A DNA stretch of 64,000 nucleotides from Escherichia virus KFS-EC, in sequence record MH560358, one strand, 5' to 3'. A program made the translations under genes and the position numbers. Every line of letters starts with the position of its first letter. Position 1 is the first letter of the stretch. Below the pieces are notes generated by a model, which did no database searches, was not told the origin of the DNA, and worked only from the letters and a program-made list of their open reading frames with translations. Below are positions 47,210 through 53,544 of this stretch, piece after piece.

Positions 47210-49453
47210 TTACAGCTTGCAAGATGAGCACTCGCTAGCGTCTTCCGTACCATCTGCACCGTCGCGAACGTTCGCATAATACAGGGTTTTCAGACCGTAA
47301 TATTGAGCAAACAGCATATCATCTAACACATCAGCAATATCGACTTTACCAGTCTTATAAGTGCTTGGATCGTAGGATGTATTGGAACTAATCGCCTGAT
47401 CTACAAACTTCTGCATGATCGCTGCCAGTGTCAGATAAGGCTTGTTACCTTTCTTGATCAGTGTCCAAAGCAGGTCAATAACATCAGCATTATTCTCTAC
47501 GTTCGGAATAACCTGATTAAATTGCCCTTCTTTCGATCCTTTAACCGATACAATCCCGCGAGGCGGTTCAATACCGTTTGTGCTGTTAGATACCTGAGAA
47601 GACGACTCACAAGGCATCAGCGCCGAAAGCGTACTGTTACGAATGCCATATTTTTTCAGGTCTTCGCGCAGTTCTTCCCAATCCATCTCATACACCGGAT
47701 CAACCAGTTCATCTACTGTCTTTTTGTACCAGTCGATAGGCAGTTCACCGCGACCATAGCGTGTTTCGTGCATCAGTTCGCAAGCACCCTTCTCTTTAGC
47801 CAGTCGCACACTAGCCTTAATCAGAGCATATTGCAAGCGTTCAAACGTTTTATGCGTAAACTCGTTAGCGTCTTCATATGTGAAGAAATTATCTGCTAGA
47901 TATGATGCAAAGTTAGTAACACCAATACCCAGAGAGCGACGTTTTTTGGCTGTCAGAGCTTGTTCTACAGGATAATCCTGATAATCTAACAGGTTGTCAA
48001 GTGCACGCACCATAACCATAGCAATGCGTTCTACTTCTTCCATATTTTCGATATCAAAGTTTCCTAAAACATATGCTGCCAAAGTGCATAGGCTGATCTC
48101 TGAATCATCACGACCCATCGGTTTTGTTGGCAGAGCAATTTCACAACACAGGTTAGATTGTTTAATCGGTGCTACATTACGAATAAACGCCCCGTGATTG
48201 TTCATGTTGTCTGTGAACGTTGGGTAGATTCGACCAGTGTTAAAACGTTCAATTGCCACCGCTAAAAACAGGTCTTCGGCTTTAACACGAGTTTTACGAA
48301 CACTCGGATCTTTTTCCAGTTTTTCGTAAAGCTGGCGGAAACCTTCCTCATCTCGGAAGTATAGATCCCACAACAAGCCACCCGCAACATCTGGACTAAA
48401 CAGAGTAATGTAATCCCGTTTAAGGAATCGCTCTACCATCAGGTTATTAATCTGTACGCCGTAATCAAGATGACGAATGCGGTTATCTTCCACCCCCTTA
48501 TTGTTCTTTAACACAATCAGACTTTCAAACTCTAAATGCCACATTGGGTAATAGAGTGTCGCTGCCCCGCCACGAATACCGCCTTGTGAGCATGACTTAA
48601 CGGCAGTCTGAAAATGTTTCCAGAATGGGATAACGCCAGTATGACGAACTTCACCATGCCCGATCTTAGATCCTTCCGCGCGAATCATACCAGCATTGAT
48701 ACCGATGCCAGCACGCTTGCTAATATACTTGATGATTGCATTTGCTGTTTCGTTGATGCCCTGCAATGAGTCATCACTTTCAATCACCACACACGAACTA
48801 AATTGGCGTGTTGGGGTACGCACACCTGCCATAATCGGAGTAGGCAGAGAGATTTGCTTATTCGCAACAGCATTATAAAAATCAATCACATGTTCAAGTC
48901 GATTTTCTGTCTCTTCTTGATGCAAGCACATACCGATCAGCATATACGCAAATTGCGGTGTTTCAATGATTTTCTTAGTGCTGCGATCCTGAACAAGATA
49001 TTTCTCTTTTAACTGCATCGCACCAGCATAGGTCATTTTAAAATCAAGTTTATGGTCGATGAATTTCTCCAGATATTCCACTTCTTCACGGGAATATTTT
49101 TGCAGAATTTCGCGATCATATTTTCCGGTTGCAATATTACGCTCAATATGGCTATAAAAATCAATAGGTTGGAATTGACCGTATACTGATTTACGAAGCG
49201 CGAACATTGCAAGGTTACTTGCTACATATTGATAATCAGGTGTTTCTACAGTAATGTTATCTGCGGCGACCTTAATCAATACTTTCTGGATATCATTGGT
49301 AGACATACCTTCTGTCAGAAGTGGTTCAACCATATCAAACAATTCATATGGATCAACGTTATGACCTTCGGCTGCCGCTTCCAGAATTTTCATTACTTTT
49401 TCTTTTTCAAACGGAACAGTCAGACCGGAAGACTTAACAACATTTTTAATCAT
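47210..49453 (-). CDS. nrdA: Ribonucleotide reductase large subunit NrdA
   Basis: 747 aa, class I RNR alpha with C-terminal CSSC redox pair. Confidence 0.9.
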   Translation of the reverse strand: MIKNVVKSSGLTVPFEKEKVMKILEAAAEGHNVDPYELFDMVEPLLTEGMSTNDIQKVLIKVAADNITVETPDYQYVASNLAMFALRKSVYGQFQPIDFYSHIERNIATGKYDREILQKYSREEVEYLEKFIDHKLDFKMTYAGAMQLKEKYLVQDRSTKKIIETPQFAYMLIGMCLHQEETENRLEHVIDFYNAVANKQISLPTPIMAGVRTPTRQFSSCVVIESDDSLQGINETANAIIKYISKRAGIGINAGMIRAEGSKIGHGEVRHTGVIPFWKHFQTAVKSCSQGGIRGGAATLYYPMWHLEFESLIVLKNNKGVEDNRIRHLDYGVQINNLMVERFLKRDYITLFSPDVAGGLLWDLYFRDEEGFRQLYEKLEKDPSVRKTRVKAEDLFLAVAIERFNTGRIYPTFTDNMNNHGAFIRNVAPIKQSNLCCEIALPTKPMGRDDSEISLCTLAAYVLGNFDIENMEEVERIAMVMVRALDNLLDYQDYPVEQALTAKKRRSLGIGVTNFASYLADNFFTYEDANEFTHKTFERLQYALIKASVRLAKEKGACELMHETRYGRGELPIDWYKKTVDELVDPVYEMDWEELREDLKKYGIRNSTLSALMPCESSSQVSNSTNGIEPPRGIVSVKGSKEGQFNQVIPNVENNADVIDLLWTLIKKGNKPYLTLAAIMQKFVDQAISSNTSYDPSTYKTGKVDIADVLDDMLFAQYYGLKTLYYANVRDGADGTEDASECSSCKL

Positions 49454-49499
49454 ATTACCTCACTTCATATTTTAGCAGGAACAAGTTTATCCTCCATAT

Positions 49500-49530
49500 T
49501 GGGGGGCTTTCGCCCCCCCTTTTGTTTATA
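49500..49530. other. GC stem-loop (GGGGGGCtttcGCCCCCC) at the td / nrdA junction
   Basis: Perfect 7-bp G/C stem at or overlapping the td stop; T-tract lies on the plus-strand side, so orientation and function are ambiguous; coordinates approximate. Confidence 0.3.
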
Positions 49531-50761
49531 CTGCCATTTGAGCGGTGATTGCTGGATGGCTTTGATAGTTGTGAATTTTAAAATCTTTCGGAGTCTTTGT
49601 CAATACCTCATCTAAAGATTTAAATTCCGGCAACTCAATTGTTGGTTTATCAAACGGAACACGGCTTAACTGTTCCATAACTTGATCAAAATGGTTTTTG
49701 TAAATGTGGCAATCCCCACACTGATAAACCAGTTCGCCAACTTCTAACCCGCAAATCTTCGCGATGATATGCGTTAACAGTGCATAGCTCGCTACGTTGA
49801 ACGGATTCCCTAAAAAGAGATCATTCGAACGCATGAAAAATAAACAACTCAATTTGTTGTCGTTGGAAACATAAAACTGTACCATCGGATGACATACACC
49901 TAACACAGCATTATGCGTTTCCTGTACGTTCCATGAATCAATGATAATACGACGACTATACGGATCATTCTTGATCATGTCAATAACTTTTTGTAACTGG
50001 TCTTCCCAAATCTTCGGGCGATAGACATATTCTTCATCGTCTTTAGTGCTTGATGTGTCTACGTCCATACTAACAAACATCGTGGTATCTGGTGCTAAAA
50101 TATCCCCGCCCAGATAATCACTATCAAGCAGATAACCGAAATAACCATCATCTACCCATTCCTGGAATCCCCACAAGCAATATGCATCATTAACAAAATT
50201 AGATTGAGTCTTCCAGTGGTCTGCTACTAAGAATAGATTATATTCAGAATCAAACTCTTCATAACGCATACCACGCCAGATAGCACATAAACGGTCTTCT
50301 GTGTCATTGGTTGGCGTAAAGTCTTCTACCCACGGGTGCTTAAATGTATGTGTATATTTGCTCTTAACGCGCTTAATTTTGATTTCACCATGTGGATGAA
50401 TCGGTTTGCGTCGCCACGCCATACCATACATATTGCCGACATTATAACCATTGAATCGCAAAGGATTCTTTTCTTTCATATCAAGACAGTTACCGCGCCA
50501 AATGTCGAAGGCTTCTTCGTCAAACTGACCGCGTGTAATTTCCTGTAAGCGACGGCGGTCAAGTGATCCCTCCATAAACCATAGCAACTCGCCAATTATA
50601 GAGGCTGTAGCCATCTTTTTAGTGGTCAGTAATGGGAAACCCTTGCTTAAATCGATTCGCATCTCCGCGCCGAATTTAGAGAGCGTACCTACCCCCGTGC
50701 GGTCTTCACGAGGACAGCCATTATCAAGAACATCACGCAATAGTTTCAAATATTCTTTCAT
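49526..50761 (-). CDS. td: Thymidylate synthase with large internal insertion
   Basis: N- and C-terminal blocks match ThyA / T4 Td (DRTGVGT, DPYSRRIIIDSWNV, HPAITAQMAV); about 130 extra residues between the WRR and EDQLQ blocks. Confidence 0.85.
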   Translation of the reverse strand: MKEYLKLLRDVLDNGCPREDRTGVGTLSKFGAEMRIDLSKGFPLLTTKKMATASIIGELLWFMEGSLDRRRLQEITRGQFDEEAFDIWRGNCLDMKEKNPLRFNGYNVGNMYGMAWRRKPIHPHGEIKIKRVKSKYTHTFKHPWVEDFTPTNDTEDRLCAIWRGMRYEEFDSEYNLFLVADHWKTQSNFVNDAYCLWGFQEWVDDGYFGYLLDSDYLGGDILAPDTTMFVSMDVDTSSTKDDEEYVYRPKIWEDQLQKVIDMIKNDPYSRRIIIDSWNVQETHNAVLGVCHPMVQFYVSNDNKLSCLFFMRSNDLFLGNPFNVASYALLTHIIAKICGLEVGELVYQCGDCHIYKNHFDQVMEQLSRVPFDKPTIELPEFKSLDEVLTKTPKDFKIHNYQSHPAITAQMAV

Positions 50762-51002
50762 CCCACATCACCTTTTTCTTATTGATTGCTTTCTTACGCA
50801 GTTTTGCTACTGTCTCGTCAATGTCTATAAAGATAACACCACGGTCGAATATAGTAGCAGGTCTTGATATATCGCTATTTTCTTGCACAGGAAGCCATGA
50901 TGCGCTAGCTTCATCATAGAGATATTGTAAACCGTAATAATCTACGGCTACTGCGTAGTTTTCACTGGTAGCCGTCCATAATTGAATAATACCGACTTTC
51001 AT
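50733..51002 (-). CDS. Hypothetical protein (89 aa)
   Basis: Start moved to ATG (MKVGIIQLW); 3' end overlaps the td start by 29 nt. Confidence 0.4.
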   Translation of the reverse strand: MKVGIIQLWTATSENYAVAVDYYGLQYLYDEASASWLPVQENSDISRPATIFDRGVIFIDIDETVAKLRKKAINKKKVMWDERIFETIA

Positions 51003-51094
51003 TATTGTTCCCGTCCGCAATGTAAACACCGACTACCAGCAAACATCAAAGATTCACCACAATGTTTGCACTCATAATCTGTCAGAATTTTCAT
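51002..51094 (-). CDS. Zinc-ribbon micro-protein (30 aa)
   Basis: ATG ORF MKILTDYECKHCGESLMFAGSRCLHCGREQ; TAATG overlap with the downstream gene. Confidence 0.3.
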   Translation of the reverse strand: MKILTDYECKHCGESLMFAGSRCLHCGREQ

Positions 51095-51095
51095 G

Positions 51096-51665
51096 TTACA
51101 CCTTCTTACGTTCTAAAATTTGTTCGCTGATCAGGTAATCATCAAGGAAGTAACTATGTTCTTCTTTTGTTGCAAAGTCAAAATATAATTCCTGAATCAT
51201 TTCCTTAGAGATCCCAACATCATATTCGAACGGATCATTAATTCCTGCTCGTTGAACATATGTTAACACAATACGATCCGAAAAGTCAACCGCTTTTTCA
51301 ATCAGGGAAGGTCCGCCGATAACACTTACCAAACCTTGCGTTTTCTCTAGGGCTTTTAACAGATCCTTCAATTCAATTCCAGTATACACATCAGGTTGGT
51401 CGCCGTTTTTAGCTTTCGGTTCTGGCTTGTTGGTATCGGTGCTAACAACCACATTCAAACGTCCCCAAAGTGCTTTAGGCAGACTTTCAAAGGTATTGCG
51501 TCCCATTACTACCGCAGAAAAATCAACCTCGCCAATAGTGCGGATTTGAAAGTTTTCCATATCTTTTTTGATTGGACGACCCCACGGTAAACCGCCTTTA
51601 AAACCAAAAGCCCAATTTTCATCCGACATTTTAGTGTTACCAATCGCAAATACACATTGAATCAT
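51096..51665 (-). CDS. frd: Dihydrofolate reductase
   Basis: GGLPWGRPIKKDMENF matches the T4 Frd motif GLPWGRVKKDLQNF. Confidence 0.85.
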   Translation of the reverse strand: MIQCVFAIGNTKMSDENWAFGFKGGLPWGRPIKKDMENFQIRTIGEVDFSAVVMGRNTFESLPKALWGRLNVVVSTDTNKPEPKAKNGDQPDVYTGIELKDLLKALEKTQGLVSVIGGPSLIEKAVDFSDRIVLTYVQRAGINDPFEYDVGISKEMIQELYFDFATKEEHSYFLDDYLISEQILERKKV

Positions 51666-51681
51666 AATATATGATCTCCTA

Positions 51682-52011
51682 TTAAATCAGTTTAAAGAAG
51701 TTTTCGTTTACATTTTCTTCGGTGATTGCTGTCTTAAATTCAGTCCCATCATCAGGAGAAACATAATAGCGTTCGGAATAATCACGCCACATTTTCAGTA
51801 AGCTGACACCGACATTGACACCGTTTTCCCAGAAACGGAATACAATTTTATGTGCGGTGTAACGATAATCACTTTGAATCAAGCTACCATCACCGCGACG
51901 GGATTCATAAACAGTAATACATTCACGGTTAGCGGCTTTAAGGCATTCTTCAATAGTGCCGCACGAGATAATACTTACTTTTTCATCTACGATTTGTTCT
52001 ACAGTCCACAT
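51682..52011 (-). CDS. Hypothetical protein (109 aa)
   Basis: ATG ORF downstream of an early promoter. Confidence 0.5.
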   Translation of the reverse strand: MWTVEQIVDEKVSIISCGTIEECLKAANRECITVYESRRGDGSLIQSDYRYTAHKIVFRFWENGVNVGVSLLKMWRDYSERYYVSPDDGTEFKTAITEENVNENFFKLI

Positions 52012-52042: not shown

Positions 52043-52070
52043 ATTATACATCATCTGTGTTCGGCGTCAA
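52043..52070 (-). promoter_or_regulatory. Sigma70-like early promoter (TTGACG / TATAAT)
   Basis: -35/-10 with 16-nt spacer. Confidence 0.45.
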
Positions 52071-52396
52071 CCTTTTTGTTCCATGAAAAGCGGTGCTGTT
52101 TCTTCTTTCAGTTTAATAACTAGCGCGGAAACTTCATCAAGAAAATCTTTTTCCATATGAGCAAGCATTGATTTAGAATCTTTGATGACTCTCAAAGAAT
52201 ATTCACTTAGATTTCCTTTTCCTAACAATAATGCGGGACACACACTATGTGGGATCTCGATTTCATGATATTCACTCATAGTATAATATTTGTGAATTTT
52301 TAAATCTATATTTCTTCGTTGTACGTCTACATCAGCAATGACATACAGACGTTCGATTTTATCACTTTTTTGAGAAAGGGTAGCATTCAAAAACAT
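52067..52396 (-). CDS. Hypothetical protein (109 aa)
   Basis: ATG ORF downstream of an early promoter. Confidence 0.5.
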   Translation of the reverse strand: MFLNATLSQKSDKIERLYVIADVDVQRRNIDLKIHKYYTMSEYHEIEIPHSVCPALLLGKGNLSEYSLRVIKDSKSMLAHMEKDFLDEVSALVIKLKEETAPLFMEQKG

Positions 52397-52425
52397 TGTT
52401 AATCCTCCGTTGTTTCGATGTGTGT

Positions 52426-52515: not shown

Positions 52516-53484
52516 TTACATCCCTAACAGAGCGTCAAGATCATCCAGATCAGAAGCGGAGGAAGTACCGCCACCCAGGTCCAGAGATGCCATCAGGTCA
52601 TCAGCGGAAGAACTCGACGCTGCGATAGCTGCGGTAGAAACAGACGCGGCGATAGCTGAGGTAGTGCCAGCATCGAATGCATTCATCTGTGCGTCAAAAT
52701 CGTCAAGCTGGCTGTTAATCGCTGCCGCAGCACTGGAAGCCGCCGCACCAGCTACCATAGAAACGCCCATAGTTTTCTTAAATTTGGTTTCCAGTTCATC
52801 GAACGGTTTAAACTGGCTAGGCGCTACAATCTCACCCAGATCAACCATGTTTTCCATCAGATATTTCTGATATGCTTCGTCTTCAATCTTCGGAAGCTGT
52901 GATTGCTGCATGAAACGAGAATCATCATAGTTCTGGTGTTTATCAACCTTCTTAGCTTTCAGGAGGAAGTTAGCACCGGAGAACACACAAGTTACATCTA
53001 CCGGAACTTCGCCCATATCGGTATTCACGTTCACCATTGCAACGATCTTATCATAAATTTTCTGACCGAAGCGGAATTTGAATACATTACCTTCATTTTC
53101 TGGTGCTTGAGGATCTTTCAGTACCAGAATATTTGCGTAGTAAGAGGCTTTACGCTTAATCAGTTGCCATTCGGTTTTATCGGTATTGTACAGGTCTTTT
53201 TCGTTAATATATTTGCACACAGGGCAAGAATCAAAATCACCGTGGGTGCTTGAGCAGTTTTCCCAATACCATTTACCATTAACTTTGAAGGAATGGTTTA
53301 CCAGTTTCACAATCGGCAGACCGTCTTCTGTCTTAGACGGCAGGAAGCGAATCAGGGCTTCACCGTTACCTGCTGCATCAGTCTTAATCTTCCACTCTTT
53401 CGGGTCTTCTTTGGAGAAACCGTTGCCACCTTTCAGTGCGGCCAGTTGAGCTTGCAGTTTGGAAGAATCTTGGCGTTTAAACAT
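52516..53484 (-). CDS. 32: Single-stranded DNA-binding protein gp32
   Basis: Start moved to MFKRQ (T4 gp32 starts MFKRK); strong similarity including the zinc-binding region and acidic C-terminus. Confidence 0.9.
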
Positions 53485-53544
53485 ATTCACTATTCCTTCT
53501 TTTGATTAATTTACTAGACTATTATACAGATTTAAATTTACTTG

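Follow-up and report, generated by a model that had tools for sequence, protein, structure and literature searches.

Homing endonuclease genes are thought to survive in essential genes only by being removed from the gene product with an intron or an intein. Genes of thymidylate synthase (TS) are hosts of such selfish elements in a conserved gene, as seen in the td group I intron of T4 with I-TevI and the thyA intron with I-BmoI, where homing with co-conversion of the flanking exons is documented (PMC2988022). I-HmuI, an HNH homing endonuclease, resides in the DNA polymerase intron of Bacillus phage SPO1 (PDB 1U3E), and inteins with HNH or LAGLIDADG endonucleases are endonuclease-bearing, in-frame insertions in conserved proteins. 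Here we describe the td gene of Escherichia virus KFS-EC (sequence record MH560358), an RB49-like, T4-type coliphage of the genus Krischvirus, within an analysed stretch of 64,000 nucleotides (nt) which is called the window throughout. The encoded TS (Td, ThyA family) has 411 amino acids (aa) and carries an in-frame insert of 136 residues. We consider it likely that this insert is a fixed, decayed and translated remnant of an I-HmuI-like HNH homing endonuclease, which entered td in frame and is now part of a catalytically intact TS.

The td insert and the endonuclease-like family

Td was aligned with E. coli ThyA and T4 Td, for which the reference sequences are exact matches to PDB 1aob_A and 1tis_A. 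Pfam family PF00303 matches Td in two separate stretches, at about aa 1-88 and 254-411 (4.1e-84; cutoff 24.3 bits), and solved TS structures align with it solely over these same residues. The gene is divided as follows:

49526..50761, minus strand: td, thymidylate synthase, 411 aa and stop codon; a single open reading frame (ORF) matched by PF00303 (4e-84) and by PDB chains of TS (1e-66), annotated td in RB49, JSE and Phi1
50411..50761, minus strand: TS N-terminal core, aa 1-117, ending in YGMAWR; from the alignment, with a ratio of nonsynonymous to synonymous substitution rates (dN/dS) of 0-0.04 against P0004, a Krischvirus-like metagenomic relative (contig L019)
50003..50410, minus strand: in-frame insert, aa 118-253, a truncated HNH-homing-endonuclease-like module; from tblastn matches to td inserts of jumbo and Vibrio phages, the profile of free-standing family members, an AlphaFold2 model (predicted local distance difference test, pLDDT, 93.4) and dN/dS of 0.12-0.16
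49526..50002, minus strand: TS C-terminal core, aa 254-411 and stop codon, with the catalytic C290 at 49892-49894; from Pfam and PDB matches and the alignment

Between W116-R117 of YGMAWR and D254-Q255 of DQLQ the alignment places 136 residues (R118-E253), where E. coli ThyA has 10 and T4 Td has 5, giving a net excess of about 126-131. An in-frame expansion of about 130 residues between these two blocks had been proposed from the letters of the DNA alone (the sequence-only reading), and its size is confirmed; the proposed limits, 50006-50407 or aa 119-252, lie one residue inside those of the alignment at either end. The conserved TS blocks, said there to be intact, retain every catalytic and binding residue in the alignment with both enzymes: R21, E58, R270/R271, C290, H291, Q295, R311, S312, D314, N322, H352 and Y354. 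As their E. coli counterparts we took R21, E58, R126/R127, C146, H147, Q165 (this one queried), R166, S167, D169, N177, H207 and Y209. The window Td is expected to be active as TS with the insert in place.

The reading frame of td is open, as had been stated, with ordinary base composition and G+C content, and the full-length gene is present at 80-99% nt identity in 57 phage records, all of them Krischvirus/RB49-like phages or unclassified relatives. In RB49 it encodes 410 aa and has been annotated since 2003. Comparison of td in related phages, one of the proposed checks, found the insert in 57 of 57 of these records.

When the insert alone was used in tblastn, matches beyond Krischvirus were obtained in td of phages KP13-7 and phiKp_21 (1e-11) and UE-S1 (4e-12), with 31-34% identity to the inserts of KP13-7 and UE-S1, as well as in a gene annotated 'HNH endonuclease' in the Vibrio phages D69, D148 and D181 (1e-6). 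All these bearers are TS-family proteins of 477-517 aa with a larger insert at the identical site. The junction motifs R.xP.xPHG..I.R and V.RPKI[WY].DQL are common to the window insert and the larger ones, and the former aligns with the middle of the latter, lacking blocks of about 58 aa on the N-terminal and about 45 aa on the C-terminal side. Long inserts match PHROG 'HNH endonuclease' families at 2e-33, 1.5e-25 and 1.6e-20. The window insert searched alone gave weak matches (0.11 and 0.53) to the first two of these families, at homologous profile positions, and no Pfam family was found on it or on the long jumbo-phage insert; in this domain-database check, which the sequence-only reading had suggested, the link is clear only through the longer inserts.

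Profile searches of 5.8 billion proteins returned many more insert-bearing TS, together with free-standing proteins of about 195-240 aa that share the motifs Y..W..M..RCY, VC.RW..F.NF..D, LDKDY and YS..TC.W.....N and often end in PF22083, 'I-HmuI NUMOD-like'; only through this C-terminal module of its free-standing members is the family seen in Pfam. We refer to it as the I-HmuI-like 'LDKDY' homing-endonuclease-like family (phrog_2081 / phrog_953; free-standing members of about 225 aa). Its full architecture comprises an N-terminal beta-barrel, a helical domain, a beta-beta-alpha motif and a NUMOD-like C-terminus. A profile of 32 free-standing members matches the window Td at aa 151-240, over model positions 71-169 of 229 (E value 2e-4), with no other match in the window; the KP13-7 insert matches the same profile at 8e-41.

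In other phages the family is found as a full-length module read in frame at this td site, and free-standing in split nrdD, which indicates that the insert began as a mobile element independent of splicing and not as a new catalytic or regulatory domain. Two free-standing members, P0045 and P0052, come from phage contigs of about 100 kb (L010 2996-6492; L013 3289-6436), where each is flanked by an N-terminal and a C-terminal fragment of nrdD. A place between gene fragments is classical for an intron-encoded or gene-splitting homing endonuclease. At these two nrdD loci Rfam gave no match at the gathering threshold and only a group I match of 15.7 bits, with about 320 nt of non-coding sequence upstream. 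The sequence-only reading had seen here a genuine inserted domain without assigned function; that it is a real in-frame domain under purifying selection holds, and what has to be replaced is the rest, since the domain appears to derive from a mobile element, as a truncated homolog of an I-HmuI-like HNH homing endonuclease.

Some further members of the family deserve mention. The 'HNH endonuclease' coding sequence of Vibrio phage D69 (L001 2644-4077; also in D148 and D181) is a 477-aa TS-family protein (PF00303, 2e-47) with the module in frame; its annotation fits the insert and not the host enzyme, and should be corrected to a TS homolog. The TS core of this protein is divergent, with RETRSGK instead of DRTGxGT. 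In Bacillus phage 015DV002 (MW419086.1, 133522-135171) a td product of about 550 aa aligns along the full insert-bearing Td of jumbo phages at 36.7% identity, and phages of Firmicutes appear to carry the module too. An endonuclease of another family, mobE-like, was noticed in a metagenomic T4-like phage with a short td insert (L017 4689-7876), where nrdA is split by an ORF of 237 aa with the canonical HNH motif HHVIPRCMGGTNDKSNIVVLTPEEHYLAH.

AlphaFold2 models were made of the window insert alone, with the family alignment, and of one free-standing relative, P0045. Modelling of the insert, another check proposed beforehand, gave a confident fold (pLDDT 93.4, predicted template modelling score 0.85), with terminal strands at aa 120-130 and 245-252, helical segments at aa 153-169, 181-193 and 199-204, and two short strands (aa 210-213 and 228-231) that are the counterpart of the hairpin in the beta-beta-alpha motif of the family. 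The two terminal strands probably pair as a two-stranded stalk. The model matches homing-endonuclease-like phage proteins, not Hint. The parts of the insert are:

50372..50404, minus strand: predicted N-terminal beta strand, aa 120-130, PIHPHGEIKIK; from the model, conserved as R.xP.xPHG..I.R in all site-B inserts (those between YGxxWR and DQL, see below)
50150..50305, minus strand: helical core, aa 153-204, with the W..M..R helix, VADHW and NFVNDAYCLWGFQEWVD; model helices 38-54, 66-78 and 84-89
50069..50134, minus strand: beta-beta hairpin remnant of the beta-beta-alpha-metal motif, aa 210-231, YLLDSDY...APDTTMFV; model strands 95-98 and 113-116, and the residue table
50006..50029, minus strand: predicted C-terminal beta strand, aa 245-252, YVYRPKIW, leading into DQLQ; from the model, with V.RPKI[WY] conserved in all site-B inserts

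Across the endonuclease-like family, residues W183, F189 and D192 vary little or not at all, and the motif D[AS][YF][CS]LWGFQE[WFY]VD is strongly conserved across long and short site-B inserts. The family motif LDKDY...YS..TC.W.....N reads LDSDY...LA..TT.F.....D in the window insert. Of the full architecture the insert lacks the barrel, the C-terminal module and the helix that follows the hairpin (P0045 residues 160-169), which is absent from its model. Neither the canonical catalytic His of HNH in the first strand nor the metal-binding Asn/His in the helix is found in the window insert.

Residue decay, selection and probable mobility

A search of 1.84 billion representative proteins with the whole Td returned many TS proteins of 400-585 aa among its best 150 matches. 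When 209 collected proteins were scanned with the profile of the free-standing family, the module was found in 91 TS proteins, and it is present in at least 90 distinct TS clusters. It occupies two sites: site A, which follows IWDxW, precedes GDLGPVYGxQWR and is used in E. coli-like TS cores of 461-484 aa, and site B, the site of the window insert. Coverage of the endonuclease model ranges in TS inserts from near-complete (positions 5-222) through intermediate (57-170) to the core only (about 71-169 or 104-175). We compared six polar positions invariant in the free-standing proteins (D137, K138, D139, Y150, C155 and N163 in P0045 numbering) with six of the hydrophobic core:

Free-standing proteins: polar invariants kept 5.9 of 6, hydrophobic core 5.8-5.9 of 6
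TS of at least 460 aa: polar invariants kept 5.0 of 6, hydrophobic core 5.8-5.9 of 6
TS below 460 aa: polar invariants kept 2.4 of 6, hydrophobic core 5.8-5.9 of 6
Window insert: polar invariants kept 2 of 6 (D, S, D, L, T, D), hydrophobic core 6 of 6

The window insert thus differs by K138S, Y150L, C155T and N163D. Only two 'short' entries keep all six polar residues, and both are truncated long forms; in short inserts the LDKDY motif takes the forms LDSDY, LDCDY, LSCDY, LSCKY and LTQKY. Loss of the nuclease with retention of a foldable core would give exactly such a conserved fold with freely changing putative functional residues. The Krischvirus form is accordingly described here as probably nuclease-dead.

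The substitution pattern indicates that the insert is translated and under purifying selection. Comparison with P0004 yields a dN/dS of 0.12-0.16 for the insert (21-24 nonsynonymous and 25-33 synonymous changes), while the C-terminal end of the TS core gives about 0.05. Within Krischvirus the value for the insert spreads from 0.11 to 0.6 on few substitutions, so the estimate against P0004 is the more reliable one. The insert varies more than the TS core, with 49% against about 70% aa identity to P0007. This protein belongs with P0006 and P0008 to T4-like phages known only from metagenomes, whose short inserts are about 50% identical to that of the window; in one of them (L017) the gene context is gp59-gp32-frd-td-nrdA. 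A four-codon indel at 50231-50248 (td aa 172-177) was noticed within the insert, where the window and RB49 have SEYNLF and JSE, Phi1, JK32, phiS and PHB13 have Y/C----I; it implies that the insert tolerates changes of length.

The loop between YGxxWR and DQL holds 25-39 unrelated residues in P0087 and in the jumbo phages RaK2 and 121Q, its length over P0087, P0094 and P0095 is 25-40 residues, and the module is absent from P0098; the TS loop after YGxxWR is a general hot spot for expansion. In the insert-less td alleles of RaK2 (L015 2501-3430) and 121Q (L016 2501-3430) an unrelated loop of about 39 residues, DWVDYKFSS...GVVMHRST, is found at the same site.

The long forms show presence/absence polymorphism. 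In about 40 jumbo phages of the genera Asteriusvirus and Alcyoneusvirus (121Q, PBECO4, RaK2, K64-1 and others) td encodes 309 aa and lacks the module, which is present in td of UE-S1, KP13-7, phiKp_21 and ph0011. UE-S1 and 121Q are 93-99% identical over the upstream genes and the first 95 or so td codons, about 50-65% identical from codon 97 or so through the insert to about codon 450, and then again 94-99%; the same pattern is seen between KP13-7 and RaK2, with flanks 98-100% identical. In both pairs the divergent stretch (50-78%) is limited to the insert and about 100-300 bp of exon on each side, next to flanks of 97-100% identity. Between the two jumbo-phage genera, the insert-bearing patch is 78-96% identical and the flanking genes 45-75%. 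In the context of near-identical genomes, a foreign insert within a short foreign exon tract is the signature of double-strand-break repair with co-conversion. Both the T4 td intron and free-standing phage endonucleases are established cases of such endonuclease-initiated repair (PMC2988022). The homing-type polymorphism with divergent flanks is thus a property of the jumbo-phage long forms and not of Krischvirus, where no insert-less td was found among the 57 records.

A related trace is present in Krischvirus at the 3' junction of the insert:

49714..50013, minus strand: divergent patch, td aa about 250-350, which begins where the insert ends on its 3' side and includes the active-site Cys; from sliding identity against RB49

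Over these sharply bounded 300 bp the window and RB49 are 63-85% identical in nt, as compared with 97-100% in the insert and 95-100% in the flanks. The patch has two allele classes in Krischvirus, one in the window and JSE, the other in RB49, Phi1, JK32, phiS and PHB13. In the jumbo phages, too, this part of the exon has diverged together with the adjoining insert, and the Krischvirus patch may have been left at the junction by repair or recombination long ago.

The genes around td follow the order gp59, gp32, frd, td, nrdA. The td start overlaps the end of an upstream 98-aa ORF (50733..51029) by 29 nt (50733-50761), as annotated for RB49ORF236c/td, which suggests translational coupling. At 52053-52400, between the frd-proximal ORF (51682..52011) and gp32 (52516..53490), RB49 does not align (30-45% identity). 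At this position RB49 has the 485-aa ORF239c and the P0004 contigs have a CapR/DUF4379 gene of 340-405 aa, while the window has only a 109-aa ORF (52067..52396) without a Pfam match; the region may represent a further presence/absence polymorphism of a mobile gene.

Weighing of the explanations

In the history that we favor, a homing endonuclease gene would have inserted into td without breaking the reading frame, at the loop that joins the YGxxWR block to the DQL helix in the small domain of TS. As this loop tolerates extra sequence (5 to about 39 residues in related TS), the element would need neither RNA nor protein splicing, and would be translated as a domain of TS held on probably two beta strands. 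The full-length form of about 195-250 residues, known from KP13-7, UE-S1, Vibrio phage D69 and many metagenomic td genes, has the barrel, the helical domain, the LDKDY...N motif and the NUMOD-like C-terminus, and would behave as a homing element, in keeping with its presence or absence in near-identical genomes and the foreign patch of flanking exon. It would have spread by homing until it was fixed in the Krischvirus lineage and no empty targets remained. After fixation it would have lost the two DNA-binding modules, the beta-beta-alpha helix and the majority of the polar invariants, leaving a compact, nuclease-dead folded core inside TS, which presumably persists because deletions are tolerated only as long as a foldable core remains. 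This account matches the cycle of invasion, fixation and degeneration proposed for homing endonuclease genes (PMC2988022).

Several observations speak against this history. About 0.14 is a low dN/dS for a passenger without function, and at least 16 distinct clusters of TS with short inserts, at two sites, have kept the same minimal core; low dN/dS and repeated retention of the core are as compatible with a function, whether retained or new, as with a folding constraint. The beta-beta-alpha motif of the family has Asp (LDKD) at the position of the catalytic His of I-HmuI, whose motif we take to be DHKD. Even the long forms are presumed nucleases, and a 47-kDa Td that is made and active is a prediction. 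Finally, the divergent patches could come from ordinary mosaic recombination instead of endonuclease-initiated repair.

The first two of these observations lead to the strongest of the rival explanations, in which the former homing endonuclease is an exapted domain, its core now binding nucleic acid (for example td mRNA or DNA, in regulation) or a partner protein of nucleotide synthesis. It would agree with a dN/dS far under neutrality, the compact and confidently predicted fold, the strongly conserved D[AS][YF][CS]LWGFQE[WFY]VD motif in long and short site-B inserts, the independent survival of the same core at both sites among many lineages with short inserts, and its fixation in all 57 Krischvirus genomes. 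However, the insert is far more variable in length and sequence than the TS core and has internal indels, closely related TS (P0098, RaK2, 121Q) do without the module, no conserved polar surface motif was found beyond the core residues of the family, and folding constraint alone can yield low dN/dS in an essential enzyme. We therefore rate exaptation as rather unlikely. It is very improbable that the Krischvirus fusion is still an active endonuclease, cleaving the insert-less td of co-infecting T4-like phages and so driving its own inheritance or marker exclusion: the insert does belong to a homing-endonuclease-like family, and a sharply bounded patch adjoins its 3' junction as repair tracts would, but the N-terminal barrel, the NUMOD-like DNA-binding modules and the beta-beta-alpha helix are absent, four polar invariants are substituted and such positions vary freely among short inserts, and every Krischvirus td on record has the insert.

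The segment might yet be removed, through an intron that escaped recognition, a reaction like that of inteins or translational bypassing, to leave a mature enzyme of normal size. This has precedents: introns (T4) and inteins (actinophages; bioRxiv 10.1101/2025.01.02.630785) are classically found in td, and there are atypical in-frame elements, such as the ShiLan domain (PMC11855218), whose processing is unclear. Yet no Rfam intron was found across 49300-51100 even at E<=1, which agrees with the exclusion of a group I intron in the sequence-only reading, and neither Hint nor any other Pfam family was found on the insert at E<=1. Its junctions, WR|RKPIH (RRKP...) and PKIWE|DQLQ, have no Cys/Ser at the start and no His-Asn followed by Cys/Ser/Thr at the end, so the absence of intein hallmarks stands as well. 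The frame is open in all 57 genomes and in homologs with as little as 31% aa identity, over which the aa motifs are conserved, dN/dS is well below 1, and the predicted structure of the segment is that of a protein domain with homologs among real proteins. To judge from the sequence, the insert is not spliced out, and we regard removal as scarcely credible. A hidden endonuclease in another frame, of the ShiLan type, was also looked for in the insert and rejected, as no sizeable alternate-frame ORF was found there, only mechanical ORFs of 41 aa and 70 aa that overlap it. A sequencing or assembly artefact or read-through of a pseudogene, the former named beforehand as what could overturn the claim, is refuted by the same full-length open frame in 57 independently sequenced genomes, the intact TS catalytic residues and the purifying selection.

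Beyond the decayed remnant in Krischvirus, a third lifestyle, next to introns and inteins, might be considered for the HNH-type family as a whole: in-frame insertion in permissive surface loops of TS (at least two sites, many lineages), with the TS-endonuclease fusion itself acting as the homing enzyme and the fixed remnants recruited as non-catalytic TS domains. We offer this only tentatively, as possible and not as likely.

Comparison with described systems

The insert accounts for the td of Krischvirus being 120-130 codons longer than in other T4-like phages. Taken alone, the window feature is a fixed relic; the interest lies in a widespread, splicing-free lifestyle in TS genes and in a complete decay series from full-length polymorphic forms to minimal cores. 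If our explanation is true, permissive loops can substitute for splicing, so that selfish DNA persists in a key gene without intron or intein; the life cycle of a homing endonuclease, from invasion through fixation to decay, becomes readable within one gene family; and selfish elements can be a source of new domains in metabolic enzymes. The long forms are candidate site-specific nucleases against a conserved gene.

Compared with I-HmuI, the td family adds the helical W..M..RCY domain and has LDKD in place of the presumed DHKD, without the canonical His, and no Pfam HNH model matches it. I-HmuI sits in an intron, whereas the window copy is embedded in frame in an enzyme and is devoid of both flanking DNA-binding modules and the motif helix.

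A limited literature search, which did not include the original RB49 genome paper, found no publication that describes the td insert of RB49/Krischvirus or HNH modules in frame within thyA. A passage of a jumbo-phage genome paper (PMC5259590) treats homing endonucleases as 'fusions with host proteins' as a known category, citing the review by Edgell et al. 2010; no such statement was found in that review.

The ShiLan domain of an actinophage DNA methylase gene (PMC11855218) is similar in being in frame, in lacking detectable intron or intein features, in its homing-like distribution and in the loop tolerance proposed for it. It differs in that its HNH endonuclease is read in another frame, whereas the td module is read in the TS frame as a TS domain, decayed in the window copy. 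With the I-TevI and I-BmoI systems the insert shares the host gene; those endonucleases are of the GIY-YIG type, intron-encoded and RNA-spliced, while the td insert has no detectable intron and would stay in the protein. Unlike inteins, it has neither a Hint domain nor junction nucleophiles, and no protein splicing is expected. The small-domain insertion of about 50 residues in L. casei and S. aureus TS (PDB 1LCA, 4DQ1) is likewise a lineage-specific expansion with intact catalysis, located at or near site A. The window insert had been assigned to the small-domain loop, which is right as to its place between YGxxWR and DQL but does not make it the classical insertion site: the L. casei/S. aureus insertion precedes YGxQWR, the window insert follows it, and the two did not align.

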